A stretch of DNA of 64,000 nucleotides. Source: Candidatus Omnitrophota bacterium (GTDB lineage Bacteria; Omnitrophota; Gorgyraeia; Gygaellales; Profunditerraquicolaceae). The notes under the pieces were generated by a model. The model saw only the letters and a list, made by a program, of their open reading frames with translations, had not been told where the DNA came from and made no database searches. The translations under genes were made by a program, and so were the position numbers. This document shows positions 3,874-51,986 of the stretch, piece by piece. Where the stretch lies: contig JAZDEW010000064.1 of the NCBI GenBank assembly GCA_043808425.1, positions 11,772 through 75,771 on the forward strand, read 5' to 3'. Numbering within the stretch: position 1 is the first letter of the stretch; each line of letters begins with the position of its first letter.

Positions 3874-4016
3874 TTTTTCTCCCAAAATTACATGATTAGA
3901 AATTTTAACAGAGATTAAGCCCTTTGTCAAATAGAATCAACACCTTATAGCTTTTCTCCTACACAGCCGTGAGAACCCAATATCATATCTTAAAAATCTC
4001 AGCCTAAACATCTTAA

Positions 4017-5450
4017 CTAATTTCTAGATAAACTTTTTAAAGTAGCCAAAAAACCGGGAAAAGACTTATTAATACAGCTAACATCATCAAGCCTAGACTC
4101 ACCCTCCGCGGCTAAAGCCGCCACCACCATACTCATGGCAGTACGATGATCTCCAAAACTTTTAAGCTCAGCCCCACAAAGCCGGCCCTGTCCATTAATA
4201 ACAATATTTTCTCTCCGGCCAGTCTTTTTTACCCGAATATCTGCTCCCATCTTCCTTAAATTAACAACCATGGAATTAATTCGATCCGTCTCCTTAACCC
4301 TAAGTTCACTAACCCCTTTAAATATACTGCGCCCTTGGGCAAAACAGGCAGCAACCATCAAAATAGGAAGCTCATCCACTAAAGAAGGTATTTCACGAAA
4401 ATAAACTGTCGTACCCTTAAGCTTGCTACTCCTTATAATAAGATTGCCCCGAGGCTCAAAATTTTCCGCCTTATGGCATTGGGCATGAGAAGACAAACCC
4501 CGCCTTGCCGGCAAGAAATCTTTCTTTAGCTTCTCAAATTTAAAAGTAACAACTTTTATTTTAGCCTGCATTCTTTTAAGCACATTGATTATTCCGCTAC
4601 GGCTAGGATTAAGGCCAACCTGCTCAATAACAATCCTGGCTTTAGGAATAATCGTAGCTAGAACTACAAAAAAAGCTGCCGAAGAAATATCCCCGGGAAT
4701 ATAAATTTCACCCGGGCTAACTAAGTTTTGGCTGGAATTTAAGGTTATGCTATTATTATTTACAGCTACATCGGCCCCGAAGATTTTAAGCATACGCTCA
4801 GTATGATCACGGGTACTTAAGCGCTCAATAACTTGAGTTTTACCTTTAGCGAATAAACCGGCTAAAAGAATCGCGGATTTAACCTGGGCCGAAGCAATCT
4901 TTAAGTGGTAGACAATGCCCTTAAGATTTCCTCCGCTGATAATTATCGGCGCATACTCTTCCTGAGCCTTAATCCTGGCAATAATCCGCGCCCCCATCAA
5001 ACGCAAGGGTACGTTTACTCTAGACATGGGCCGGGCAGAAAGATATTTACCCGCAACTATTTTAGTTTTAAAATCCATCCCGGCTAAAACACCTAAAAGT
5101 AAACGTAAAGAAGTTCCGGAATTATTTACAAAAACCGGCTGATGAGGAACTTTCCATCCTTGCCTGCCGCAACCGTTAACAAAAACTACCCCCTTCTTGC
5201 GCAATATTTTTACTCCCAAAGCGCATAAGGCATTTAAGGTAGCCAAAGAATCATCATGTACGGGAAAATTATTAAGAATGGTTTTGCCGCTAATTAAGGC
5301 ACTTAAAATTAACGCACGGTGGGCAATAGACTTATCCCCGGAAAGAGTAATACGGCCAGTCGGGATAAATTTATTCTTGATTAAAAAAGGCTGACGCGAG
5401 ATTGAAAATTTTGCCTCTAAACGATCGACGGATTTTCTAATACAGCTCAC
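4017..5450 (-). CDS. aroA: 3-phosphoshikimate 1-carboxyvinyltransferase (EPSP synthase)
   Basis: Motifs GDKSIAHRALILSA, NSGTSLRLL, RDHTERML, GDISSAAFF, VKETDRI and GDHRTAMS. It carries a roughly 25-30 aa insertion relative to E. coli AroA. Confidence 0.85.
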   Translation of the reverse strand: MSCIRKSVDRLEAKFSISRQPFLIKNKFIPTGRITLSGDKSIAHRALILSALISGKTILNNFPVHDDSLATLNALCALGVKILRKKGVVFVNGCGRQGWKVPHQPVFVNNSGTSLRLLLGVLAGMDFKTKIVAGKYLSARPMSRVNVPLRLMGARIIARIKAQEEYAPIIISGGNLKGIVYHLKIASAQVKSAILLAGLFAKGKTQVIERLSTRDHTERMLKIFGADVAVNNNSITLNSSQNLVSPGEIYIPGDISSAAFFVVLATIIPKARIVIEQVGLNPSRSGIINVLKRMQAKIKVVTFKFEKLKKDFLPARRGLSSHAQCHKAENFEPRGNLIIRSSKLKGTTVYFREIPSLVDELPILMVAACFAQGRSIFKGVSELRVKETDRINSMVVNLRKMGADIRVKKTGRRENIVINGQGRLCGAELKSFGDHRTAMSMVVAALAAEGESRLDDVSCINKSFPGFLATLKSLSRN

Positions 5451-6307
5451 TTTGTCTTTTGCGTTACCTGATCATTTTCTTTAATCAAATCTTTTAACTC
5501 CGCAGCAAAACCAGCGGCAGACATAGCTTCATGGACCTTCTCTACTTTTAAATCTCCAATAGTCTTACCCAAACGAGATACTAAAAATTCATCACCTATG
5601 CTTACATGATCTTTGCTGCCCAAATTAATCACCGCGAAATTAAATTCTTTATTTACAATTATCACCTTACCTTCTTGGCCCTTGGCCAAAGAAGGCTGAT
5701 CTTTTTTAGCAACCTTGGCGACTTTCGTCACCGGCGCATTAATTTTCTCATCAGCCAATTTAGCTTGAGCTGGAGCAGCATCAATAGCCGACTCAGACGC
5801 TTCCGGGCTGACGATCACCTTGCCCAACTCTACGCCTCCTGCACCCGTTTCTAAATCTTTAATTTTTGTCTCCAGATCAATCTTCTGCTGTTGCATGATT
5901 TTTATTTGCTCATTAATTTTCTTGCTATCTTCCTGAACCTGATTAAGCCTTTTTTCAAGATCCTTGCGCAATAATTGCTGCTCAGAAAGTTCCGCCGTAA
6001 TCTGCCCTAACTTATTAAATGTTTCCTCATGCGCTGATTTTTCCGTAAGCAACTCACCCGCTAAAGAATCCGCCTTACTTTCGGCTTCTTGTAATTTTAG
6101 CTGAAGTTCCGTAGCCACCTTTTTAGACTCTTCGAGCTGACTAACCGTTTGGCGTTGACGATTTTCCAGCTCCATAATCTGCGCTTGAAGCTGGACATTT
6201 TGCGCATGCTCTTTTTGATATAAATAAAATACCCCCACAGCAGCTGCTAATGAAATAACAAATAATACAATTAAGACCAATAACCGGATCGAGCCATTAC
6301 GATTCAT
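5447..6307 (-). CDS. Hypothetical membrane-anchored coiled-coil protein
   Basis: N-terminal transmembrane helix (LLVLIVLFVISLAAAVGVFYLY), then a Q/E/K-rich coiled coil, then a small C-terminal beta domain (VIIVNKEFNFAVINLGSKDHVSIGDEFLV). Its stop overlaps the aroA start by 4 nt. Confidence 0.4.
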   Translation of the reverse strand: MNRNGSIRLLVLIVLFVISLAAAVGVFYLYQKEHAQNVQLQAQIMELENRQRQTVSQLEESKKVATELQLKLQEAESKADSLAGELLTEKSAHEETFNKLGQITAELSEQQLLRKDLEKRLNQVQEDSKKINEQIKIMQQQKIDLETKIKDLETGAGGVELGKVIVSPEASESAIDAAPAQAKLADEKINAPVTKVAKVAKKDQPSLAKGQEGKVIIVNKEFNFAVINLGSKDHVSIGDEFLVSRLGKTIGDLKVEKVHEAMSAAGFAAELKDLIKENDQVTQKTK

Positions 6308-6587
6308 TTTTCCTCCTCATTTTTTCTCAACCTCCGGCGCTTGGGAAAAATAACCCTCAAGCTCCCGCGAAGGGAAAGATTGCTTTGCTTAAATTTCTTA
6401 AACCCTAACAAATATTTCGCTTACAAGTACAAAAGCACTAATAAATCAATGCGCTAATTCCTCCCAGGCTTACGCAGAAAATTTCAAAAAAATTCCTAAA
6501 CAATTAACCGGGGAGGCCCTCCTTATAAGGAAAAACTCCTTTTCTACTTCTTTCTTAGTCATTACTATAACATTGGTTAGGTAAAAA

Positions 6588-7505
6588 TCAAGAGAAATTC
6601 TTTTTAATAAATTCTAGAAATTCTAAAGGAATTTTACTGGTGAAATGTATAAGCTTCCCGGTAGAAGGATGAATAAAACCAATCTCTTGAGCATGTAAAG
6701 CCAACCGCGAAAAATTATCTCCCTTTCCATACTTAGCGTCGCCAAGTATCGGATAACCTAAGTAGGCCAAATGCACCCGGAGTTGATGTGTCCTGCCGGT
6801 GAAAGGTTTTAATTCCAAAAAGCTATAATGCTTAGAACGCTTTAGCGTCTTATAAAAAGTCTTGGCATATTTAGTATTTTGCGTAAACGAAACGGCCATA
6901 TTTTTTCGCTTTAAAGGATGCCGGCCAATGGGGGCCTCAATCACGTCTTCATCAAACTCCACCCGGCCACTAACAATAGCGACATATTTACGCTGAATGC
7001 TGTGTTGGGCAAACTGCTTGACCAATTTTAAGTGGCTGGCATTATTTTTAGCAATCACTAAAAGCCCGCTTGTTTCTTTATCTAGGCGATGCACAATTCC
7101 CGGACGGTTTTTATTTATATCAGAAAGTTCCGTAGAGCGGCCCAACAAAGCGTTAACTAAAGTATGCTCCCGATTTCCCGGAGCCGGATGCACCACTAAT
7201 CCCACCTGCTTATTAATTACCAATATATCCTTATCCTCATAAACAATATCCAGGGATATCTGCTCCGGTAAAAATTCTATTTTTTCTTTCTCCGGTAAGA
7301 AAACCCGCAAGGCATCACCCGGACTTAACTTCTGATGCGGCTTATTAACTATTCGCGAGTTTAATAGGACTTGCCCATCATGGATAAGCTTCTGAATATT
7401 TGTACGCGATAAACCTAAATTATTACATAAAGCATAATCCGCCAAGAACAAATCCAGGCGCATCTTTGTATCTTTGGCTTTAACTTGTAATAATAATTCT
7501 TCCAC
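6588..7505 (-). CDS. rluD: 23S rRNA pseudouridine synthase, RluD/RluA family
   Basis: N-terminal S4 domain, plus the HRLDKETSGLLV catalytic-Asp motif of RluA-family pseudouridine synthases. Confidence 0.8.
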   Translation of the reverse strand: MEELLLQVKAKDTKMRLDLFLADYALCNNLGLSRTNIQKLIHDGQVLLNSRIVNKPHQKLSPGDALRVFLPEKEKIEFLPEQISLDIVYEDKDILVINKQVGLVVHPAPGNREHTLVNALLGRSTELSDINKNRPGIVHRLDKETSGLLVIAKNNASHLKLVKQFAQHSIQRKYVAIVSGRVEFDEDVIEAPIGRHPLKRKNMAVSFTQNTKYAKTFYKTLKRSKHYSFLELKPFTGRTHQLRVHLAYLGYPILGDAKYGKGDNFSRLALHAQEIGFIHPSTGKLIHFTSKIPLEFLEFIKKNFS

Positions 7506-7560: not shown

Positions 7561-8295
7561 TTATTTTTTCTTAATCACACGCAACCTGAAGAATACCCCC
7601 AAAGAGAGAAAAAACATCACCGAGCATAAAATCTGGAAAAGAGTTAATCCAAAAAACAACCTTGGGCTATCGTTACGGAGGAATTCAATAAAAAAACGCT
7701 TTAAAGAATAAAGAAAAAGATAACCACAGAAAATCTCTCCCGGCCAATGTTTTCTATCTTGCTTAAATCTCAAGATAACAAAAATCAAAAGCATAAGCAG
7801 CGAAGAATACAGCTGGGTCGGTATTAAAATCTGATCAAAAGCTTTAAAATATAGTCCAAATTCAGATTCCCGGCCAAAACAACAACCATTTAATAAACAC
7901 CCTATTCTGCCAATCGCCTGGCCTAAAGCAACAAAAGGAACCAACAAATCTAAGCTCCTGAGCAAATTCATTTTATGTTTCTTAATAAACAGGGCTGCCG
8001 CGCTTGAACCAAAAACTAAGCCACCGAACCAGGCCATGCCTCCATGCTGCAGCATAATGATCTCCAAAGGATACTGCAAATAGAAACGAAAATTAATGAG
8101 CACATAAAATAGCCGTGAACCTATAATACCAAAAATAAAAACATAGAATAAAAGATTGAATACCTGCTCGCTGCTCATTTGCTCTTTTGCCGCCTGTAGA
8201 GAACTTAAATAGGCGCAAACAAAAAAAGCCAAAACCAGCATCAAGCCATAAGCATAAATCGTAAAAGTCCCTATCGTGCAAATTTCAGGCAGCAT
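7561..8295 (-). CDS. lgt: Prolipoprotein diacylglyceryl transferase
   Basis: Polytopic membrane protein with Lgt signature regions (GGMAWFGG, GRIGCLLNGCCFG). It is adjacent to lspA. Confidence 0.8.
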   Translation of the reverse strand: MLPEICTIGTFTIYAYGLMLVLAFFVCAYLSSLQAAKEQMSSEQVFNLLFYVFIFGIIGSRLFYVLINFRFYLQYPLEIIMLQHGGMAWFGGLVFGSSAAALFIKKHKMNLLRSLDLLVPFVALGQAIGRIGCLLNGCCFGRESEFGLYFKAFDQILIPTQLYSSLLMLLIFVILRFKQDRKHWPGEIFCGYLFLYSLKRFFIEFLRNDSPRLFFGLTLFQILCSVMFFLSLGVFFRLRVIKKK

Positions 8296-41273: not shown

Positions 41274-41597
41274 TTATTCTCGACGATAGATAATGTTTAA
41301 TTTGGACACGAGTGCTCTTTCATATATGATCCTTCCCTTAGATAAAATCCTTTTCTGGAAATGTTCTCTGATGTCGTCAAAATCGACCATATCAACTTCA
41401 TCATCTACCGCCATAGAGATTCTTCCATAATATTTAAAAAAGTCCTTAGCCTCAATTCCTTCTACCGCTATATCAATATCATTAGCCGTCTCAACGCTTT
41501 CCAGGCATGAGCCAAACAAAAATACTTTTTTCACATCAAACTCTTTGCTAATTTCTCCTATTTTAATCAATTCATTATCTAAAATTTCTTTTTTCAT
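41274..41597 (-). CDS. Minimal nucleotidyltransferase (MNT-like, pol-beta superfamily)
   Basis: GSxxxG..DxD-type motif (FLFGSCLESVETANDIDIAV). No HEPN partner ORF is adjacent. Confidence 0.7.
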   Translation of the reverse strand: MKKEILDNELIKIGEISKEFDVKKVFLFGSCLESVETANDIDIAVEGIEAKDFFKYYGRISMAVDDEVDMVDFDDIREHFQKRILSKGRIIYERALVSKLNIIYRRE

Positions 41598-41669: not shown

Positions 41670-44126
41670 TTATTTAAAAATATCTAAAAAAAACCGGCCG
41701 GCCTGAACTATTTTTTTTATTGTCTCATCATCGGGTAATGGAATTTGAAGCGCCGGTTTCCCGGTTGCTTCATCTTTTTTTATTTTAATTCCAAAAGGAG
41801 GCTGCGTATCTGATAAAACCGATTCTTCCTTGGTATCGCTGTCAAGCTGTTTAAGCATCTTACCCAAAAAAGAAATCCCGGCTTCTAAAAAATTCCGCGC
41901 GGCTTCTCTAACAAACACGGGTTCCTGGGAAAAAGTTTTCTTGGCCTCTTCTTTTTGGCTATCTTCCTCTATAACCTCTTCGCGCGCCGCCTGTTCATCT
42001 TTTATTACTTCTTCAAACCCACCCCGCGAAACTTTCTCTTCTATCTTAGGTATACCCTCCGCGGCAGTCTCGACTGTTTTAATAAACTGATTAAAACGAG
42101 ACGTTCCCATAAACACTTCATTCTCTCCATTATCAAGTATGCCGGAAAACATGGAACGTTTAAATTTAAGAAGCGACAACATTCCCTGTTCGATAGAACC
42201 TTCGGTAATAAAATTAATCACCCTGACACAACGTTTTTGCCCTATGCGGTGAACACGGCAGATACGCTGCTCCAAAACCGCAGGGTTCCACGGTAAATCC
42301 AGATTAATAACCGTGGACGCGTTTTGCAGGTTAAGCCCCAGCCCGCCTGCCTCTGTTGATAAAAATACGCGGCAATTAGAATCTTCTTTAAACCTGCTGA
42401 TAAGTTCTCCTCGTTTATTACCCGGCACGCCTCCGTGGAGCCAGACGTATTTCCAACCACGCGCGTTCATCATCGCCATAACGAGTTCAAACATCCGAAT
42501 CCATTGTGAAAAAATCACTACTTTAGCGCCGCGATCTTCCAATAAATCTTGCAGTTGTATTTCTAATTCGCCAATTTTATTGCCGCTTCTTTTATTTAAG
42601 CCGATCAAATACGTATCGTCGCTAACCATTCTCATATTTTGCAGAGCCATCATCAGGCGCTGTTTATCCTCTTCGCTCAAAAACTTATACCGTTTCCATT
42701 TATTCACAATCCGGGCGGTAATCTCCCTGTTTTCTTCATGAATGGCAGACTGTTCGGCAGTCATTGCCACAAAATACTCTTTTTCTATTCGCCCGGGAAG
42801 CTGCGCTAAAACTTCTTTTTTCCTCCGGCGTATCAAAATAGGCCTTAATGATTCTCCTAATTTATTAAGATTGCGATATCCAATCGCCCGCCCTGTTTCA
42901 TCTATTATTTCGTGCGTATGCCGAAAACGAAAAAGCGGCCCTAAATGGTGCTTATCAATAAATCCGACAATAGAATGTAATTCTTCTAATCTGTTTTCCA
43001 GCGGCGTTCCGGTAAGGACAATCGCGTAAGGAGAGTAGATTTTTTTTACTGATTTGGCTAACCGCGTCCTCCAGTTTTTAATGCGCTGCGCCTCATCAAG
43101 TATTATAATATCCGGCTTCCATCCTTCAATAGCCTTAATATCGCGATGGATCACGTCATAATTGGTAATCTTAAAAAAACTCTCTTGCTTATACAATAAT
43201 TGTCTTTTAGATAATAAGCCCTGAACCACTTGAACAGAACGATGACTAAATCGCTGGATCTCTTTCTCCCATTGATGTTTTAAACTGGTAGGGCAAATAA
43301 TCAGCGCCTTTTCAATTCCAAAACAATCAGCCATAATTTCACTCGCCGCAATAGCCTGCAATGTTTTGCCCAGCCCCATATCATCCGCTATTATGCATCT
43401 GCCGGCTATTGCCGCGAATAACGCCCCTTCTTTTTGATAAGGGTATAATTTCGCCTTTAGTAAATCTCCAAACGCGGCGTCTTGTCCGCCCCGCGGAAAC
43501 TTTTTCTCAACGCGCTTTCTGCGGATATCCGCGTCTTTGGCCATAGCGATAAATAATAACGCGTCTTCATGATAGCGGACATCATCATCTAACAAATCCA
43601 CCTGTTTAACAAATTCATCAAAATGCTGCAAGCCCTCCGCGATTAGAAAGCCCTCGTGATCGAAAAATTGGTTAACTAATTTCTTAAGCGGATTACTAAC
43701 GCGCCGCCCCATAGAAAAGGCAACGCGGCGCCTAAGCCCATACCTCAAGGTAACAAAGGAATATTCCGGGACATAACCTTCTTTAAGTATCTTTTTTGCC
43801 CCCTTTTTTCTTCGTAATCTGCGTAAAAGGTATTCGATATGCTTACAGGTCCCTAATGTATTTACGGAATAATCAGGGCAAGAACAATAATTAACCCCTA
43901 ATTTCTCTCCCCAAATTACAACTCGATAGGCCCTTTCTGTTTTGAGATTAGTTAGTTCAAATGTTGAAAAAATTAGATCCGCGCCGATATTTTTTACCCG
44001 ATAAGCCTCATCTTGAGCAATCTGCCGCCTAAGTAGAATCTGCCATTCTTCTAAAGATAATTCCTTAGGTTTTACTGTATGCGAAAACCTTTTTATTACT
44101 TTTTTACTTTTTTTCTTTGTGGACAT
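41670..44126 (-). CDS. SNF2-family helicase/ATPase with an N-terminal SWIM zinc finger
   Basis: SWIM CxC...CxH motif (YCSCPDYSVNTLGTCKHIEYLL), SNF2 motifs I and II (DDMGLGKTLQAIA; ILDEAQRIKN) and a helicase C domain. Confidence 0.85.
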   Translation of the reverse strand: MSTKKKSKKVIKRFSHTVKPKELSLEEWQILLRRQIAQDEAYRVKNIGADLIFSTFELTNLKTERAYRVVIWGEKLGVNYCSCPDYSVNTLGTCKHIEYLLRRLRRKKGAKKILKEGYVPEYSFVTLRYGLRRRVAFSMGRRVSNPLKKLVNQFFDHEGFLIAEGLQHFDEFVKQVDLLDDDVRYHEDALLFIAMAKDADIRRKRVEKKFPRGGQDAAFGDLLKAKLYPYQKEGALFAAIAGRCIIADDMGLGKTLQAIAASEIMADCFGIEKALIICPTSLKHQWEKEIQRFSHRSVQVVQGLLSKRQLLYKQESFFKITNYDVIHRDIKAIEGWKPDIIILDEAQRIKNWRTRLAKSVKKIYSPYAIVLTGTPLENRLEELHSIVGFIDKHHLGPLFRFRHTHEIIDETGRAIGYRNLNKLGESLRPILIRRRKKEVLAQLPGRIEKEYFVAMTAEQSAIHEENREITARIVNKWKRYKFLSEEDKQRLMMALQNMRMVSDDTYLIGLNKRSGNKIGELEIQLQDLLEDRGAKVVIFSQWIRMFELVMAMMNARGWKYVWLHGGVPGNKRGELISRFKEDSNCRVFLSTEAGGLGLNLQNASTVINLDLPWNPAVLEQRICRVHRIGQKRCVRVINFITEGSIEQGMLSLLKFKRSMFSGILDNGENEVFMGTSRFNQFIKTVETAAEGIPKIEEKVSRGGFEEVIKDEQAAREEVIEEDSQKEEAKKTFSQEPVFVREAARNFLEAGISFLGKMLKQLDSDTKEESVLSDTQPPFGIKIKKDEATGKPALQIPLPDDETIKKIVQAGRFFLDIFK

Positions 44127-44232
44127 AAATCTACACTCACTTCCCCGCGCTGCTCCCTCTTCGTTCTTTATTAGCCATACTTTACACCTTGATCCCTATC
44201 CGATAAGTCCTCAAGCTTACCGCGAAACTTCT

Positions 44233-44357
44233 TATCAAGTGACTGTTGCGAAATGCAATTTGTGGCGTCATTCTGAGGCCGGAGGCCGAAGAATCTCGAC
44301 GCTGATAAGATCCTTCGCTTCGCTCAGGATGACGAAAATTTGTATTTCGCAACAATC
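44233..44357. repeat. Long imperfect hairpin (MITE-like inverted repeat) in the spacer between res and the SNF2-family helicase gene
   Basis: Left arm gttgcgaaatgcaatttgtggcgtcattctgagg. Right arm cgctcaggatgacgaaaatttgtatttcgcaac. The arms are reverse complements with a few mismatches and flank a roughly 50-nt core. Confidence 0.65.
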
Positions 44358-44444
44358 CCATCAAAAACCCTATTGTCACAAAAATATTCTATAAATTCGG
44401 AATAACTATTCGGACTCAAAAAGCGAAAGAAGTATTCCCTATTA

Positions 44445-47222
44445 TTAACTCAATAATTGCTTAGTGAAAATTTCTTCAAAAACTTGTTCTTTTTCTTTAT
44501 TAAATAATGGCAATCCGATTAATTTATAATCCTTATTTTCCGCTTTCAGCAAATTTCCATTACTATATTTATCCGTAATTTGTTGTAAAAATTCTTCTTT
44601 CCAGCCTTCTTTGCTCTCTTTAAATCCGTTTTTTTTATCCGCAAATTGTCCGCCTTTCGGTTCAATAAAAATTTGATAGTATAAATTGCCTTTTTTGCCT
44701 TTCAAAAACAGCAAAAAGTCCGGCTCAAATCCGCGCCCCTGCTCAAAGTCATAAATTTTATATATTTCTTCATTTCGAAGCAAATAAACCTCATTATATT
44801 TCTCTTCTAAATTTCCAATTCTATCCTTTAAAAATTCAAGTAAACCAATTTCTTCACTTGTTCCAACAAAACCATCCAGCACATACCATTTATTTTTCAA
44901 TACTTCGTTTTCATAACTTTTGCTATACTTTTCTATATTTATACTTTTTTCTTTTGGCTCGCCAAACAAATCCTCAAAAGAAAAAGATTCAAATTTTTCT
45001 GTTCCTTTATATGGATTAGCGATTTCTTTAAGCTTTCTTGCAAATTCATCAAAAAACCCCAGTAATAATTCCAGCTTTTCTTCATTACTAATATCGCTTA
45101 AATCGTTTTTATCTTTTGGGGCAATTATATTGATCTTAAAATTGCCAATAAAATTATCCGTAAAGATTTCATCAATACTGTTTAAGCTCAATTCATTCTG
45201 TAAATTTTCAAACCGCAAAAGCGACAAATCTTTTGCCGCCTTTTTATTGATTGCTTTCGCGATGATATGCTTTTCAAAATCTTTAAGTTTTTTACTAATT
45301 GTTTTACTGCCTTTTGATAAACTTTCCGTGAGAATTTCATCTTTCTCTCTATCTAAGATAACCTGCTGTTCTTTCATTGCGAACTTTCTCGTTTTATATT
45401 CAAAAACAAACTCTTTTTCCAGCTCAGCCAATGTCATTTTTCTTTTTACCGGATTGTCCTTTTTTTCGTTTTTCCAGACTTTTATTTCTTTGAAAAAATC
45501 GCTTTGCTTAAATTCATCTTTTAGCGCGAATTTCTTTATCTGGCGATTCTCTTGAATAAATCCTTTATTTTTAAGCTCTCTTTTTAATTCGTCAAGATAA
45601 TGCGAATCATCATCACTATGATAATAAAATTCTTCCAATACTCTAAGCGGATTTTCCAAATCATTATCAAATTTTCTTTTGTTTTTCTCGCACTCATTAT
45701 AGGCAAAAGGAAAATAACGCACGCCTCTGCCGATTAGCTGAATTTCTTGTACAGTCGCCTCTCCGGCTTTTCTTTTTCCGGTGCTTTTTTCTTTTCCTTC
45801 ATCGCGCCCTTCGTAAAGCCTGACAATATCAAAAAGATTCAATACATCCCATCCTTCTGTTAACCGTTTTACCGTAAAAACCGCGCGAATATGATTATTT
45901 TTATCTTCCAAACTATTCAGCAATTGATCCTGCTCTTCTGTCGTCCTCTCCTTAGTAATTGCCTTATTGTCTTTTGAATTGGTTATAATACAATTTCTTT
46001 CGGCAAACTCGTCTTTAATATAGTTCACGATTTTGCTAATGCTTTTTTTATCATTAATAAACTTAAGCATTTGCTTAACCCTGCTTCTGCCTTGCTCATA
46101 TACCTTAGTTGAATTTGAATCATCTTGTTTTATGCTATTTTCAATGTTTTTTAAAAAATCAAAATCAGCCGGTTTTAATTCGGCAATTAGAGATATAAAT
46201 TCTTGATAATCATTTTTTGATTCTTCAATAAATTTGCTTCTAAAAAGTATTACCGGCTTGAAATTAGCAATCTTGTTTTTAAGCGCGATTTGATGGCGAT
46301 ACCAGTTAAAAAGCAAGGCGAGCAAGATCTTTTCTTTCTTTTTCAGCGAAGTTGAAACAAGGTTTATTTCTTTGGTATAGCCGGCTCTAAGAAAGTCAAC
46401 GAGTTCAAATTTATAAATTGTTTTAGGACGGTATTTTTCTATAACATCCACGTTTTGCGGTATTGTCGCGGTGAATTCCAATAAAACATTTCTATTCTCA
46501 ATATCTTGCTTATTCTTACCTCTTTTTAGGATTTTATTAATTATTGTATTTTCCCAGCTTTTCTCAATATCTTTTTCGCTGGCACTTTCCTTCAATTCCA
46601 AAGGTAAATCCAATTCAGCCTGCCCGTTTCTCATTGTTGAAGCGTTAAGATGATGCGCTTCGTCGCCAATCATTACCAAATCTTTTTTCTGCAAATCGAA
46701 AAGCGTCACTTCGTTTTCTTTAGCCAAATAAACCGCGTTATGAAGCTTGTGAATTGAAGTAAATTTTATCTGAATATCGTCCGTGCTGTCAAAAGTCTCC
46801 ACTTTGCGGATATTGATGGTTCTATCTTCAATCACGATATTTTGACGAAAAATGTATTTGGTGTGATTTTTATTGATAAAATTATTTTCCGTCTTATCTA
46901 CGATATTGTTTTGATTAACAAAGAAAATAAAATACCTGCGGCCTTTTTTGTAGTAATACAAAATCAACGCCGCCATCAGCATGGTTTTGCCGGTGCCGGT
47001 CGCCATATTAAACATCAGATGCGTCGGCTCAAAATTATTCTCTTTTACTTTGATCTTTTCCCAAATTAAAAAACTTTCCAACGCTTCTTTCTGCCATTGC
47101 CACAAAGAATGCCGGATATTTTCCGCGATAAAAACCGGTATCTGCACATCCTGCTTGGTAATACCCAAGTTAAAAGCTTCATCTCTAACTTGACCGGATA
47201 AATCCCTGCTTAAATCATACAT
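44445..47222 (-). CDS. res: Type III restriction-modification system restriction subunit (Res; helicase plus PD-ExK nuclease)
   Basis: Walker A motif FNMATGTGKT, DEAH box IGDEAHH, C-terminal EPDF...IEPKG nuclease motif. It lies downstream of a DPPY methyltransferase gene. Confidence 0.8.
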   Translation of the reverse strand: MYDLSRDLSGQVRDEAFNLGITKQDVQIPVFIAENIRHSLWQWQKEALESFLIWEKIKVKENNFEPTHLMFNMATGTGKTMLMAALILYYYKKGRRYFIFFVNQNNIVDKTENNFINKNHTKYIFRQNIVIEDRTINIRKVETFDSTDDIQIKFTSIHKLHNAVYLAKENEVTLFDLQKKDLVMIGDEAHHLNASTMRNGQAELDLPLELKESASEKDIEKSWENTIINKILKRGKNKQDIENRNVLLEFTATIPQNVDVIEKYRPKTIYKFELVDFLRAGYTKEINLVSTSLKKKEKILLALLFNWYRHQIALKNKIANFKPVILFRSKFIEESKNDYQEFISLIAELKPADFDFLKNIENSIKQDDSNSTKVYEQGRSRVKQMLKFINDKKSISKIVNYIKDEFAERNCIITNSKDNKAITKERTTEEQDQLLNSLEDKNNHIRAVFTVKRLTEGWDVLNLFDIVRLYEGRDEGKEKSTGKRKAGEATVQEIQLIGRGVRYFPFAYNECEKNKRKFDNDLENPLRVLEEFYYHSDDDSHYLDELKRELKNKGFIQENRQIKKFALKDEFKQSDFFKEIKVWKNEKKDNPVKRKMTLAELEKEFVFEYKTRKFAMKEQQVILDREKDEILTESLSKGSKTISKKLKDFEKHIIAKAINKKAAKDLSLLRFENLQNELSLNSIDEIFTDNFIGNFKINIIAPKDKNDLSDISNEEKLELLLGFFDEFARKLKEIANPYKGTEKFESFSFEDLFGEPKEKSINIEKYSKSYENEVLKNKWYVLDGFVGTSEEIGLLEFLKDRIGNLEEKYNEVYLLRNEEIYKIYDFEQGRGFEPDFLLFLKGKKGNLYYQIFIEPKGGQFADKKNGFKESKEGWKEEFLQQITDKYSNGNLLKAENKDYKLIGLPLFNKEKEQVFEEIFTKQLLS

Positions 47223-47248
47223 ATTATTTGGGGTTATAAAATTTTCGC

Positions 47249-48301
47249 TTAAGGCAATATCCTCTTTTGAGATTCGGTATTTTTTAAAAGTTTTTTTACT
47301 TCACGATCAAAATCAGAAACAAAAAGTTTGTCTTGAACCGGTTTGTATTTCTCGAATTCGCTTTCCGCGAAAGATTTAGCTATTTCTGCCGTTACTTTTC
47401 CCGCGTTTTCCAAAATTTTCGCATCGTTAAATTTCAGAAAAGCGTTTAATTTTCCTGACCAGTCCCGCATTGTCATGGGTATCCCTTTTTCCGCTTGGTA
47501 TTCGGCATAATCAAGATACATAGTTACAATTCTGTTTAAAAATTTTATTTCTTTTTCATTAAGATAATTTTTGGCAATTACCACATCGGATTTTAGAATT
47601 TTCCCGTCCGCTGATTTTTTCCAAGTAGTAAGCCCCATATAGTCTTTAGTGTGATTGGCGCGATTGACAATAACTTCCGCCGCCGTGTGCCCATGCGTGG
47701 CAAAATGAAGTTTGTTTTGAACTGTGGCAAAAAAATCTTTGGTCGTTGGAGACCGTAAATCATAATCAATTGCAGTTACATAAATATCTGTAATTTGTTG
47801 ATAAAAATTTCTTTCACTCTCGCGAATATCGCGAATTTCAAGTATCAAATCTTTGAAATACTGCTTACTTAAATATGCTCCATTTTTTAATCTCACATCG
47901 TCAAGAACATATCCCCGAATAGCGTAATCTTTCAAAACTTGAGTAGCCCACCGTCTAAAATCTACTGCCTTTGAGGAATTAATTCTGTATCCAAGAGCGA
48001 TAATAATTTCTAAATTATAATAGTCAACCGCTCTTTTTATCTGCCTATCTCCTTCTTTTTGAACTGTTTCCAAAATGGAAATAGTTGCTTTTTTTGACAA
48101 TTCTCCTTCATCGTAAATATTTTTTAAATGTTTGGAAATAGCCGGAATATTCACGTCAAAAAGTTTTGCGATAAGTTTTTGAGTAAGCCAAATATTTTCA
48201 TCGTAAATTCTCACTTCAATGCCATTCTCTTCGGCTTGAGATGTGAAAATAAGAAATTCCGCGGTAGAATTACGAATTATAAGTTTTTTATCTTTTGCCA
48301 T
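47249..48301 (-). CDS. rhuM: RhuM-family protein (virulence protein RhuM-like)
   Basis: N-terminus AEFLIFTSQAEENGIEVRIYDENIWLTQKLIAKLFDV...HLKNIYDEGEL matches the conserved RhuM N-terminal domain. It is intercalated between mod and res. Confidence 0.65.
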   Translation of the reverse strand: MAKDKKLIIRNSTAEFLIFTSQAEENGIEVRIYDENIWLTQKLIAKLFDVNIPAISKHLKNIYDEGELSKKATISILETVQKEGDRQIKRAVDYYNLEIIIALGYRINSSKAVDFRRWATQVLKDYAIRGYVLDDVRLKNGAYLSKQYFKDLILEIRDIRESERNFYQQITDIYVTAIDYDLRSPTTKDFFATVQNKLHFATHGHTAAEVIVNRANHTKDYMGLTTWKKSADGKILKSDVVIAKNYLNEKEIKFLNRIVTMYLDYAEYQAEKGIPMTMRDWSGKLNAFLKFNDAKILENAGKVTAEIAKSFAESEFEKYKPVQDKLFVSDFDREVKKLLKNTESQKRILP

Positions 48302-48309
48302 AATTATAT

Positions 48310-50316
48310 CTAACGGGGTAAATAAAATTCTTCGCTTAAAGCGATATCTGCTTTGGAAAGATTATATTTTTTATCCGCTCGCTCGCTAAAATTCACATAC
48401 ATTTGGTTCAGATCCAACATTTCCACAAAAAGTTTTTTCTGTTTGTCCAAACCCAGCTTTTTAAATTCTTCCTCTTTAACGCTTTCTTGGAATTTTTTAA
48501 TTTCAACATTGTAATTGATAAAATATCGTTCATAAAGCTCATCAAATAATTTTTCCAATTCGCTTAAATTCTTGGCTTTCAAAATTCTCTCTTTGGCTTC
48601 TTCGTTCCATTTGGCAATTTCAAGATATACAAAATCCCCAGCCTTATTGTTTTCAATAACTTTTTTAACCCGTTCTTTTGTCACTGTATCAACATAGTGC
48701 ATTTGCTCGCACAAAATAAACTGCCGGTTTCCGCCATCTTCTTTGTTTAATTCTAAAACCGCGTGAGCGGTGGTTCCGCTTCCAGCAAAAAAATCAAGAA
48801 CAATATCTTCTTTACCTCGCTCTGTAACAATATCAATAGTATCTTTAACTGTATAAAGGGATTTAGGATAACTAAATAATTTATCTCCCGAAAAAATATT
48901 TTTCAATAGCATCGTACCATTTGCTGAAGCATCATATTTTGAATCAATCCATATCGTTTTTGGCTTTCTGCCATCCTTAATTCTATCCTTCATATAAATA
49001 ACACATTTTCCAGTAGTTTTTTTACAAACCATATCACCTCTTTTAACAGCTTCTAAAAAAGATGGCCGTGTTTGTCTCCAAACTCGTTTTTTCCCAAGCT
49101 TATCAATTGGAAATATTTCAATGTATCCCGATTTTTTATCAAGAGCAAAAATATTATTTTTTTCATCAAAATATATTGGATAGTATGAATTCGGCCTTTC
49201 TTCTGGAGTAGAAGTTCCGCCACTTCGCCTAAACGGCAAAAGACGATAGTCCCCTGAATTATCTTTTTTATCAAAATCTAATTCTTGCTCTTTTGTTAAT
49301 TTAAGAAAATTCAACGAAACCTGATCAATATCTTTCGCATAAAACATTGCGTACTCGTGTGAAGTCGCAAAATGCGTATTTGTAGTTCTGCCCCGTGGAT
49401 TACTTTGCACAATAACCGTACCAACAAAATTTTCTCTTCCAAATACTTCGTCGCTTAAAATTTTCAAATGAGCTTGCTCAGAATCATCAATGGTAACAAC
49501 AATTACTCCCTCGTCGCTCAATAATGTTTTTGCTATGTCCAATCGATTCTTAATAAAAGTCAGCCAAGAAGAGTGGTTAAAACTGTTATTATAGACAAAG
49601 GTATTATTTTCTCCTTCTGTATTATACGGCGGATCAATATAAATCAATTTTACTTTTCCAGCAAATTGCTCTTTTAAACAATGCAAGACAAGCAAATTAT
49701 TGCCCTTGATAATCAAATTATCCTTAATCACGCCATTTTCATCGCGGCGAAAACCGAGATTGCCGCGGTCGCTATCGCTCCCTCGCAATGACAGCATAGA
49801 ATGCTCGCCGTCTCTGTCTATTCGTTTAAAATTAGTAAATGCTTTGGGATCAAAAAGCCGGTCAATTTCATCTTTGGCTAAAACTTCATTAAAGAATACC
49901 TCGTTTCTTTTTTGATCTTCTTTGGTCATGCCGCCTTCCAACACACAATCCTTGAAAGGCCAATCCAAAACAACCTCTTCACGCTCGGAAAGAAGTTTAT
50001 TGCCAACGCGTAAACCGATTTTATTTTGATATTGAGTATACGAATTATCCAGCTTATTTTCATCAATAAAAAATTTCAAATCATTATGTTTTAAAACAAA
50101 AACATCTTTAATCCTGATAAAAAACTTTTCTTTTATTTCTTTATCGCTAAGTAACAATTCAATAATTTTCTCATCCAGCTTATCAATCAAATCTTTCAAA
50201 AGAGTCTCGTTGATCTCTTTTTTTTCTTCATCCCAAAGCCGAGCGTCTTTTTTAAGTATTTTATACAGATTGTCTTTAAATTTGTTTCCCATAGTAAAAT
50301 TTTCCCTTTTTTCCAT
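48310..50316 (-). CDS. mod: Type III restriction-modification system methyltransferase subunit (Mod; beta-class N6-adenine/N4-cytosine MTase)
   Basis: Motif IV DPPY (LIYIDPPYNTE) precedes motif I FxGSG (VLDFFAGSGTTAHAV), which is the beta-class order. A long middle region is consistent with a target-recognition domain. Confidence 0.82.
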   Translation of the reverse strand: MEKRENFTMGNKFKDNLYKILKKDARLWDEEKKEINETLLKDLIDKLDEKIIELLLSDKEIKEKFFIRIKDVFVLKHNDLKFFIDENKLDNSYTQYQNKIGLRVGNKLLSEREEVVLDWPFKDCVLEGGMTKEDQKRNEVFFNEVLAKDEIDRLFDPKAFTNFKRIDRDGEHSMLSLRGSDSDRGNLGFRRDENGVIKDNLIIKGNNLLVLHCLKEQFAGKVKLIYIDPPYNTEGENNTFVYNNSFNHSSWLTFIKNRLDIAKTLLSDEGVIVVTIDDSEQAHLKILSDEVFGRENFVGTVIVQSNPRGRTTNTHFATSHEYAMFYAKDIDQVSLNFLKLTKEQELDFDKKDNSGDYRLLPFRRSGGTSTPEERPNSYYPIYFDEKNNIFALDKKSGYIEIFPIDKLGKKRVWRQTRPSFLEAVKRGDMVCKKTTGKCVIYMKDRIKDGRKPKTIWIDSKYDASANGTMLLKNIFSGDKLFSYPKSLYTVKDTIDIVTERGKEDIVLDFFAGSGTTAHAVLELNKEDGGNRQFILCEQMHYVDTVTKERVKKVIENNKAGDFVYLEIAKWNEEAKERILKAKNLSELEKLFDELYERYFINYNVEIKKFQESVKEEEFKKLGLDKQKKLFVEMLDLNQMYVNFSERADKKYNLSKADIALSEEFYLPR

Positions 50317-50325
50317 AATATAATT

Positions 50326-51162
50326 TTATTTCAATTTTTTAGTTTTTAATTTTGGCAAAAAGTTTTCGCCTGTAATCACGCTTTTTCCAGTTTTTTCTTC
50401 CAAAGCCGTTCTCGCGTCTTTAGCAATTTTACCGCCTTTCTTCGCGGGAATCTTGTTAGCCTCCAAACCTTTTGTTTCCATAGTTTCCGCGATTTGGCGA
50501 GTGGAAAGTTCCGCCAAGGCCGTAAAAACCAATTCCGCGTCAGACATATGATCCCGTAAATTTTGCGTCTTTAACTTCTTTAAATTTTTATGTTCTCTAA
50601 CCGACAAATCACTCCATTCTTGGTGGATAATATTTGTCAAAATAGCGTATTCGTCTTTTTCTTCAACTTCGTTGTCTTTCCAGTAATCCGTCAGCTTATT
50701 CCTAACTTCCTGCCCCATCATTCTTTGCTGAATCCATTTTTGGCTTCGGCCCATTTTTTGCCAATAATCACGGCTGCGATTAAGTGCTTTTTCAGGATCA
50801 CTTATTTCTTTTATTCTTTCATAACCAACTTTTGCAAGCCAAAGCTTTATCGGCTCGGCTTTTTTACTCGGAACCGATTGAATAATTCTAAATAGATGCT
50901 CAGGATTTCCGGCTAAAGTTTTTCTGTTTTTCCCTGTTTCCGTGCCCATTTCTATCTGGGGACAATTTGTCCCTATGTAGCGGCCAAGTTCAGAATCCCT
51001 TTTTCTTAATTTTTTCAAGTAATCCGTGGGATTGACGCTTCCAGTAAGCGCAAAAATAATATCCACCACGGAAAAATACCATGATCCTTTTTGTTCATCA
51101 TAGAAACGCCGGATTTTATAGGTTTCAAAAATTGCCAATGAATTTTGATTATTTTTCTTCAT
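50326..51162 (-). CDS. Bro-N / KilA-N domain protein (DinD-like, DNA-damage-inducible protein D family)
   Basis: N-terminal IRRFYDEQKGSWYFSVVDIIFALT matches the Bro-N fold. It is the first gene after radC in the defence operon. Confidence 0.55.
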   Translation of the reverse strand: MKKNNQNSLAIFETYKIRRFYDEQKGSWYFSVVDIIFALTGSVNPTDYLKKLRKRDSELGRYIGTNCPQIEMGTETGKNRKTLAGNPEHLFRIIQSVPSKKAEPIKLWLAKVGYERIKEISDPEKALNRSRDYWQKMGRSQKWIQQRMMGQEVRNKLTDYWKDNEVEEKDEYAILTNIIHQEWSDLSVREHKNLKKLKTQNLRDHMSDAELVFTALAELSTRQIAETMETKGLEANKIPAKKGGKIAKDARTALEEKTGKSVITGENFLPKLKTKKLK

Positions 51163-51170
51163 ATTTTAAT

Positions 51171-51854
51171 TTAAATTAACCCTTTATCCTTAAAACTTAA
51201 AAACCCATTTGCCGTAACAATGATATGATCAATAATTTCAATCCCCATAATTTTACCAACCTCAACTAATCTTTTGGTAATCGTCAAATCGTCTTCCGAC
51301 GGTTTGGGGTCGCCCGAGGGATGATTGTGAACAAATATCACGGATGCCGCCTTATTTTTGATGGCTTCGGCGAATACTTCGCGCGGATGGACAATGCTGG
51401 CGTTAAGGCTGCCCACGGAAACCTCTGCCACTGAGTGATTTCTACTATTAAGAGCGATAATATAAAAATGTTCTTTTTGATAATCTTTGAGTCTGCTTTT
51501 TATCAACTGATAGACCTTTAGGGGATCGGTAAGTTCTTTACTCTTATATGGCGGGGCCTGAGTAGAAACGCGGCGTCCAATTTCAAAAACGGCTTTTATT
51601 TGTGACGCTTTTGCTAATCCAATTCCTCTAACTGAAGACAGCTCCTCAATACTTGCTTCGGCTAATTTCTGTAAACTGCCAAATTGCGATAGTAGTTTTT
51701 GCGCCGTGACTACCACCGATTCACCAGCAATACCGCGCCCTAAAATAACCTGTAATAACTCCTGAGCCGAAAGCGCCTGTTCACCAAACTTTACCAATCG
51801 CTCGCGTGGACGTTCATCGGCTGGTAGATCATGAATAGTAAACGATTTGCTCAT
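51171..51854 (-). CDS. radC: RadC-like JAB/MPN domain protein (UPF0758)
   Basis: N-terminal HhH region (ELLQVILGRG) and C-terminal JAMM motif HNHPSGDPKPSEDD. Confidence 0.8.
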   Translation of the reverse strand: MSKSFTIHDLPADERPRERLVKFGEQALSAQELLQVILGRGIAGESVVVTAQKLLSQFGSLQKLAEASIEELSSVRGIGLAKASQIKAVFEIGRRVSTQAPPYKSKELTDPLKVYQLIKSRLKDYQKEHFYIIALNSRNHSVAEVSVGSLNASIVHPREVFAEAIKNKAASVIFVHNHPSGDPKPSEDDLTITKRLVEVGKIMGIEIIDHIIVTANGFLSFKDKGLI

Positions 51855-51908: not shown

Positions 51909-51986
51909 TGGTCGGGGAGAGCGGATTTGAACCGCTGACCTCTTGCTCCCGAAGCAAGCGCTCTAGCCAAGCTGAGCCACTCCCCG
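51909..51986 (-). tRNA. tRNA-Pro (anticodon CGG)
   Basis: Minus-strand sequence CGGGGAGTGGCTCAGCTTGGCTAGAGCGCTTGCTTCGGGAGCAAGAGGTCAGCGGTTCAAATCCGCTCTCCCCGACCA folds as a cloverleaf. It has a 7-bp acceptor stem, a GCTC/GAGC D stem, a CTTGC/GCAAG anticodon stem with loop TTCGGGA, a GGTTCAAAT T loop and an encoded CCA. Confidence 0.88.

Follow-up and report, generated by a model that had tools for sequence, protein, structure and literature searches.

Gene content of the locus

The window analysed here is a stretch of 64,000 nt from a Candidatus Omnitrophota bacterium (GenBank assembly GCA_043808425.1, contig JAZDEW010000064.1, positions 11,772 to 75,771). Open reading frame (ORF) calls on the window show five consecutive minus-strand ORFs at positions 44445-51854, in the order radC, a Bro-N/DinD-like gene, mod, rhuM and res. 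The mod and res genes encode the two subunits of a Type III restriction-modification (R-M) system, and rhuM (47249-48301) lies between them. A sequence-only reading of this DNA had described the five genes as one operon, in which RhuM, the Bro-N protein and RadC serve as accessory, regulatory or anti-anti-restriction modules of the R-M system. The identities of the five genes are upheld by Pfam, NCBIfam and PADLOC profiles (the Pfam Bro-N match being marginal), and their order, the physical intercalation of RhuM in the Type III pair, and spacers of 8 nt (radC/Bro-N), 9 nt (Bro-N/mod), 8 nt (mod/rhuM) and 26 nt (rhuM/res) are confirmed. The reading of the five genes as a functional unit, on the other hand, is only partly borne out, and RadC is a native neighbour. 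It is fairly probable that the locus is a mosaic rather than one system of five genes, with RhuM and the Bro-N protein as autonomous candidate defence modules inside and beside the Type III pair. Coordinates are in Table 1.

Short spacers and co-orientation are not particular to this locus. The minus strand holds 59 of the 61 window ORFs of at least 90 aa, and same-strand gaps across the window have a median of 7.5 nt, with 35 of 56 gaps no longer than 30 nt. GC skew is negative throughout all 64 kb (positions 1-64000), and the gene-strand bias is extreme; the two together place the window within one replichore. Thus tight spacing and co-orientation are the background state of this genome and do not mark the five genes as a functional unit. 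A terminator scan detected no intrinsic terminators within the spacers of the locus, and promoter-like sites are not in excess (33, vs 28.2 ± 5 in shuffled sequences). The shared strand, spacers of at most 26 nt and the terminator-free spacers make co-transcription of the five genes plausible, and a single transcript is probable because the intergenic space is too small for separate signals.

Base composition differs between the genes. Forty background genes have a GC fraction of 0.408 ± 0.018, and res (0.328), rhuM (0.341) and mod (0.335) fall about 4 standard deviations below the host genes. The Bro-N gene has a value of 0.380 and radC one of 0.423. An Rfam scan found no non-coding RNA besides tRNA in the region 43.8-52.8 kb.

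Table 1. Features of the locus and its borders, in window coordinates, listed in minus-strand order
Feature	Position	Strand	Length	Evidence and remarks
tRNA-Pro(CGG)	51909..51986	-		ARAGORN; Rfam tRNA 65 bits; directly upstream of radC
radC	51171..51854	-	227 aa	Pfam RadC PF04002 4.8e-42; UPF0758_N PF20582
Bro-N/DinD-like gene, PDC-S13	50326..51162	-	278 aa	Pfam Bro-N PF02498 2.4e-6, 28.5 bits
mod, Type III methyltransferase subunit, apparently intact	48310..50316	-	668 aa	N6_N4_Mtase; TypeIII_RM_meth
mod 3′ end, copy 1, functional	48310..48373	-		encodes ...KKYNLSKADIALSEEFYLPR and stop; direct repeat D2
rhuM, single-gene module, PDC-S05	47249..48301	-	350 aa	Virulence_RhuM PF13310 2.5e-107
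mod 3′ end, copy 2, decayed remnant	47223..47286	-		KEDIALSENFITPK and stop; 1-nt deletion; directly after rhuM body
res, Type III restriction subunit, apparently intact	44445..47222	-	925 aa	ResIII PF04851 1.8e-25
structured intergenic region	44127..44444	-	318 nt	downstream of res; inverted repeat 44232-44261 / 44337-44366

The Type III mod-res pair

Mod displays matches to PF01555 (5.4e-32), to PF12564, the Type III Mod N-terminal domain (5.6e-15), and to PADLOC MTase_III (3.4e-158). Its translation has the motif order of the beta class, with IDPPYN upstream of FAGSGT. Res matches PADLOC REase_III (1.8e-103) over residues 23-915 and consists of a superfamily 2 (SF2) helicase and a C-terminal PD-ExK nuclease, with GTGKT, DEAHH and EPD...IEPKG motifs in the translation. 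The DPPY-before-FxGSG order and the DEAH helicase with PD-ExK nuclease named by the sequence-only reading are both visible here, and in these features the pair is like EcoP1I and EcoP15I (beta-class Mod with DPPY before FxGxG, SF2 helicase and PD-ExK Res). Compared with homologs, both ORFs appear to be full-length.

Homologs of Res at 70-88% identity are found in Patescibacteria (candidate phyla radiation, CPR), Atribacterota, DPANN archaea, proteobacteria and others. With the window proteins, 31 related Type III loci were annotated, 29 of which carry both mod and res. In 27 of these 29, res follows mod directly, by an overlap or a gap of a few nt, and the ancestral EcoP1I/EcoP15I-type gene order and abutting junction are kept. 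The window departs from this arrangement in that rhuM, with 1053 nt, intervenes. RhuM is found in none of these loci and a Bro-N gene upstream of mod in none; a single related locus (L029) has a Bro-N homolog, and there it is downstream of res. The window and the sister loci share nucleotide homology only in mod (50303 to 48322) and res (47286 to 44450), and this homology stops at the gene ends, in the case of res 5 nt from the stop codon. The central region of mod, presumably the target-recognition region, is variable and outside the nucleotide homology. The mod-res genes are a horizontally acquired pair, otherwise an ordinary Type III system, of a lineage that moves among very distant phyla, always as a cassette of just these two genes.

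The two exceptional sister loci have another gene between mod and res. In L024 (6968-8914) it is a GHKL ATPase with an HSDR_N_2-type nuclease (restriction-fold) domain, and in L025 (6591-8897) an AAA_13 ABC ATPase of the PrrC/RloC-like class. Thus unrelated modules have landed repeatedly at the mod-res junction of this lineage, as L024, L025 and the window show.

Two further observations concern the Res and Mod families at large. About a dozen Res homologs, 69-73% identical and 1086-1152 aa long, carry an extra Peptidase_S24 (LexA/UmuD-like) domain (P0086, P0091, P0097, P0102, P0103, P0110, P0112, P0116, P0117, P0119 and P0120), which suggests fusion of some lineage members to a module that is autoproteolytic and may respond to SOS signals. 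In addition, mod is split into 2-3 ORFs in L002, L015 and L019, and res likewise in L030; these splits could be due to frameshift inactivation or to phase variation.

A duplicated mod 3′ end flanks rhuM

In L011, the locus with the closest Res relative, mod ends in ...KEDIALSEEFYNSK, followed by TAA, a single T and the ATG of res. The window has two copies of this mod end. Copy 1 (48310-48373) is the functional end of mod; it reads ...ADIALSEEFYLPR and stop, followed by 8 nt and the start of rhuM. Copy 2 is still joined via TAA-T to the res ATG, and the last 11 codons of rhuM pass through it in a different frame. A Smith-Waterman comparison of the two copies gives a score of 45, whereas shuffled sequences give 18 ± 2.4 (z = 11). 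L011, L014, L009 and L008 each have a single mod-res junction, which can be aligned with either copy in the window; L011 6224-6274, for instance, matches window 48372-48322 and also 47285-47235. The remnant is most similar to L011, the locus that also has the best Res relative.

Thus the mod 3′ remnant between rhuM and res shows that rhuM was inserted secondarily into an ancestral abutting mod-res junction. The gene entered about 60 nt before the ancestral end of mod, by an insertion that either carried or made the duplicate end. The scar may have originated by target duplication or by one-sided homologous recombination with a mod-rhuM donor. Unlike in EcoP1I and EcoP15I, a foreign gene of 1.05 kb interrupts the junction, and res is probably coupled in translation to rhuM instead of mod. 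No insertion scar was detected around the Bro-N gene (z = 0.8).

Direct junction duplications of 30-90 nt, resembling that of the window, also flank RhuM in some other loci. In L156 (4799-4884 / 6034-6122) the duplicate is 85 nt long and takes in the ribosome-binding site of the integrase gene that follows, along with its first codons; L100 has a 49-nt duplicate around RhuM (6666-6714 / 7848-7896), and in L190 (6868-6899 / 8022-8050) a duplication also flanks the gene. Such duplications were found in only about 4 of 108 loci and thus are not a general signature. A remote possibility, raised by the window, L156 and L100, is that these single genes have a mobility mechanism of their own, by which 50-90 nt of a target junction become duplicated.

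RhuM and its distribution

RhuM matches PF13310 with 358 bits (cutoff 33.7) over profile positions 1-249 of 252, and PDC-S05 along its whole length at 1.5e-147 (489 bits). Residues 33-123 show a co-linear, nearly full-length match to Bro-N that is sub-threshold (E = 0.023), and a sub-threshold N-terminal Bro-N match is also displayed by 9 of 26 diverse RhuM members. A BLASTP comparison of RhuM with the window Bro-N protein gave no match, and a profile-profile comparison of the two gave a weak probability of 4.6%; the assignment of a Bro-N-like N-terminus thus rests on the sub-threshold Pfam matches in 9 of 26 members. With this evidence the N-terminus of RhuM is probably a divergent Bro-N-like domain. 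The C-terminal part has many invariant polar residues (R160, D179, Y180, E209, K244 and N245, with S162, E163 and K197 near-invariant), which suggests an enzyme, and this domain is probably enzymatic. One of the 26 diverse members has a Fic fusion. An AlphaFold2 model of RhuM, built with 33 homologs that are all at least 73% identical, has a mean pLDDT (predicted local distance difference test) of 39.5 and is unusable because the diversity of the alignment is too low. Sequence searches of the PDB found no solved relative for RhuM, the Bro-N protein or the RhuM profile.

Hundreds of RhuM relatives at 74-82% identity are found across phyla. Four relatives that were examined on long contigs (77-82% identity) are all solo, without an R-M neighbour: in Desantisbacteria the gene is situated between sugar-metabolism and O-antigen genes, in Moranbacteria within an operon for a liv-type ABC transporter, and on other long contigs it is beside a HipA pair or near a NACHT gene. 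A survey of 135 RhuM loci from metagenomes and viral contigs, in which R-M genes were scored within three genes of RhuM, revealed such genes at 17 loci, mostly of Type I. On annotated plasmids, hsdM-hsdS-rhuM-hsdR, solo rhuM, and rhuM beside integrases are seen. On viral contigs, integrases and recombinases are the commonest operonic neighbours of RhuM (12 of 45). The order mod-rhuM-res is present in L056, L067 and L107, which belong to a different Type III family (PADLOC 03634/03647, vs 03635/03651 in the window). Thus the arrangement arose independently more than once.

In the Moranbacteria transporter operon (L042 and L043, 3496-11720), RhuM is accompanied by further intruding modules: a toxin-antitoxin pair of the nucleotidyltransferase/HepT type, a GIY-YIG gene and an ABC_tran fragment of 81 aa; here selfish or defence modules pepper a CPR housekeeping operon. 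Tandem arrays of 2-3 divergent RhuM paralogs in the same orientation are present in L058, L065, L086 and L094.

The Bro-N/DinD-like protein and its distribution

The Pfam Bro-N score of 28.5 bits is close to the cutoff of 25.6. The match to PDC-S13 is strong (1.7e-113, 376.7 bits) and spans positions 3-273 of 286. The protein is predicted to consist of an N-terminal Bro-N DNA-binding domain and a conserved DinD-like C-terminal domain without an assigned function. The DinD label of the homologs is taken only from source-database names (‘DNA-damage-inducible protein D’).

Patescibacteria widely carry relatives at 77-85% identity. In L046 and L047 the gene is solo, whereas in L267 a relative is embedded as hsdM-BroN-hsdS, and in L195 one directly precedes a Type III res. 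A DinD-like gene adjoins rhuM in L109 and in L128. Gut contigs of one viral or mobile-element family (L204, L206, L207 and about 13 more) display the row HTH_3 - RhuM - ORF6N - DinD-like Bro-N, as in L204 at 3979-6894; RhuM is present in some members of this family and other small genes take its place elsewhere.

radC, tRNA-Pro and flanking sequences

The product of radC matches the NCBIfam equivalog NF000642 with 246 bits (cutoff 180). Its domains are full-length, with a UPF0758/HhH N-terminus and a JAB domain, and the HxHxxxxxxxSxxD motif is present as HNHPSGDPKPSEDD. RadC is missing from all 31 related Type III loci, in which up to 9 kb were examined, and was not seen near RhuM or Bro-N relatives in the neighbourhoods that were viewed. 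The gene is thus taken as a native host gene of canonical chromosomal type that merely abuts the island, and the tRNA-Pro(CGG) gene is likewise host context outside the R-M cassette.

Downstream of res, no att-like (attachment-site-like) repeat matching the tRNA or the 3′ end of radC was detected, and no integrase was found. The locus is thus unlike a classical tRNA-integrated island, and an integrative island at tRNA-Pro was rejected.

The 318-nt region that follows res folds, as RNA, into a long hairpin (-69.8 kcal/mol, z = -2.47) and contains an inverted repeat of 30 nt, and it probably marks the end of the transcription unit. It shows no homology to the related R-M loci, and the CATCCTGAGCGAAGCGAAGGATC core of the repeat has a single occurrence in the window. 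A spurious plus-strand ORF of 91 aa overlaps the region. Just downstream of the island, at 41274-41597 and 41670-44126, are a SWIM/SNF2 helicase gene with host-like GC and a small Polbeta-type nucleotidyltransferase gene (PADLOC PDC-S09); no HEPN partner ORF of at least 50 aa adjoins the nucleotidyltransferase gene.

Interpretation of the locus

Genes that are embedded in BREX, DISARM and Type I R-M systems served to define the PDC families, and the ‘guilt-by-embedding’ survey covered Hma, BREX, DISARM and Type I R-M, with Type III outside its scope (Payne et al. 2024, bioRxiv 10.1101/2024.01.29.577857). Like embedded PDC-S05 and PDC-S13 genes, the RhuM and Bro-N genes of the window are single, co-oriented, and nested within or against a multi-gene defence system, and as in these families non-embedded members exist too. 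Unlike the published embedded cases, the host system in the window is Type III and the insertion is documented by a sequence scar. In E. coli B, a lone PDC-S05 gene lowered the plating of T7 and T5 about 1000-fold and that of T4 about 10-fold (bioRxiv 10.1101/2024.09.26.614923). The view that the roles of RhuM and DinD-like proteins are not established is therefore outdated, as both families are catalogued as embedded defence candidates and one RhuM gene alone gave phage resistance, although the literature search found no published mechanism for RhuM. The ‘virulence protein’ RhuM of Salmonella pathogenicity island 3 (SPI-3) shares Pfam PF13310, but a virulence role is not suggested in the window, where the host is an environmental Omnitrophota bacterium.

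In the mosaic reading, the host backbone is formed by tRNA-Pro and radC as native Omnitrophota genes, and the Type III mod-res pair was acquired horizontally downstream of radC, from a lineage in which the stop codon of mod as a rule adjoins or overlaps the start of res. A self-contained rhuM was inserted some 60 nt before the end of mod, leaving an intact end upstream and a decaying duplicate before res, and a second self-contained module, the Bro-N/DinD-like gene, is situated between radC and mod. Each of the two proteins may represent an independent anti-phage or abortive-infection layer, in which an N-terminal Bro-N-type domain would serve in DNA binding or as a sensor and a C-terminal domain as effector. 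Their place in an R-M operon could benefit them in that they are expressed and transferred together with it and are protected from loss.

RhuM and the Bro-N protein most likely act alone, and not as subunits, regulators or guards of the R-M system. The accessory role that had been proposed for them and for RadC is undercut by their absence from the 27 of 29 sister loci in which mod and res are adjacent and by the secondary insertion of rhuM. It is further undercut by the nearest relatives of RhuM and the Bro-N protein, which are solo at 77-85% identity, by the presence of R-M genes near only 17 of 135 RhuM loci, and by the native composition of radC.

Several points weigh against autonomy of the two modules. 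Of the 17 loci linked to R-M, 10 have RhuM directly after the methylase gene, in Type I as well as Type III systems, and this recurrence, with the independent origins of mod-rhuM-res, leaves room for an interplay between RhuM and R-M. RhuM and DinD-like genes co-occur above expectation for unrelated genes (L109, L128 and the gut mobile-element family), so the two may not be fully independent of each other. In addition, the published RhuM defence test is of a single homolog whose similarity to the window RhuM is unstated, the literature search found no paper on PDC-S13, and the assignment of radC as native is based on its base composition, the type of its family and the lack of the gene in sister loci.

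Alternatively, RhuM and the Bro-N protein could be mobile-element baggage that plays no part in host defence, i.e., antirepressor-like regulators, addiction toxins or anti-defence genes from prophages and integrative elements that hitch-hiked into the locus after illegitimate recombination, which is considered unlikely. Bro-N, KilA-N and ORF6N domains are typical of phage antirepressors. The integrases and recombinases that adjoin RhuM on viral contigs (12 of 45 operonic neighbours), the gut elements with the HTH-RhuM-ORF6N-BroN row, the junction duplications on both sides of RhuM in several loci, and the RhuM found within a transporter operon beside toxin-antitoxin and GIY-YIG genes are all consistent with such an origin, and very high conservation across phyla fits selfish spread. 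However a direct anti-phage phenotype was obtained for RhuM in one test (bioRxiv 10.1101/2024.09.26.614923), and it was enrichment inside defence systems that defined PDC-S05 and PDC-S13. The window RhuM and Bro-N ORFs are intact, and 75-85% identity across phyla implies strong purifying selection. A prophage-end position is also typical of phage-encoded defence genes, and this evidence is thus ambiguous.

A coupling like that of PrrC, which corresponds to the anti-anti-restriction idea of the sequence-only reading, should also be considered. In the Type Ic system EcoprrI, the non-R-M gene prrC is located between R-M subunit genes, similar to rhuM in the window, and PrrC is regulated by its R-M partner. 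By analogy, RhuM and/or the Bro-N protein would be kept inactive by, or would sense, the Type III enzyme, and a toxin would be unleashed when a phage inhibits Mod or Res, as a back-up to the R-M system. The position of rhuM between both R-M genes, with which it is probably co-transcribed, agrees with this, as do its recurrence directly downstream of methylase genes in Type I and Type III systems and its independent embedding at mod-res junctions in two Type III families. Another likeness to the PrrC/RloC type (HEPN/ABC ATPase) is the AAA_13 ABC ATPase at the same mod-res site in sister locus L025. Besides the EcoprrI precedent, RhuM has been proposed to act in R-M loci as a toxin domain that is frequently fused to Doc, and has been predicted to be the protein-modifying arm of multi-level R-M loci (PMC3710099). 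However PrrC is almost exclusively R-M-embedded (bioRxiv 10.1101/2024.01.29.577857), and near-exclusive embedding is not found for RhuM (17 of 135 loci) or for the Bro-N protein (solo in L046 and L047). The closest RhuM relatives, at 77-82% identity, have no R-M neighbour, RhuM is missing from 27 of 29 sister Type III loci, and its R-M partners vary in type and family, which speaks against a specific protein-protein interface. Unlike PrrC, RhuM of the window clade is mostly solo, and one homolog works alone, a lone gene being protective in E. coli B (bioRxiv 10.1101/2024.09.26.614923). The solo occurrence of most near-identical copies thus disfavours a PrrC-like coupling, which is rather improbable.

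A wiring of RhuM, possibly with the DinD-like Bro-N protein, to the restriction enzyme, whereby failure or inhibition of Mod/Res is sensed and the cell is killed or arrested, would explain the independent landings at methylase-nuclease junctions in two unrelated Type III families and in many Type I systems, but it is judged distinctly improbable. A true five-gene unit in which RadC (JAB) joins the R-M system, for example in DNA processing or anti-restriction, is hardly credible: the radC-Bro-N spacer of 8 nt on the same strand and the occurrence of short RadC-like JAB proteins near anti-restriction genes in mobile elements favour it, but short gaps are the norm across the window, and this RadC is of the full-length chromosomal type with a UPF0758/HhH N-terminus, has a host-like GC of 0.423, and has no counterpart in the 31 related Type III loci or near RhuM and Bro-N relatives.

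Autonomous defence genes embedded in R-M operons are already established (PrrC; Payne et al. 2024), and the window thus provides a further example and reveals no new kind of system. It modestly extends to Type III R-M the pattern in which defence genes nest inside defence operons, and the duplicated mod 3′ end is an unusually clear molecular fossil of a nesting event. In one very mobile Type III lineage, the junction between mod and res has served at least three times as a site for different modules, namely RhuM, a GHKL ATPase and an ABC ATPase. For studies of PDC-S05 and PDC-S13, the locus is a natural test of whether embedding adds more than co-expression.

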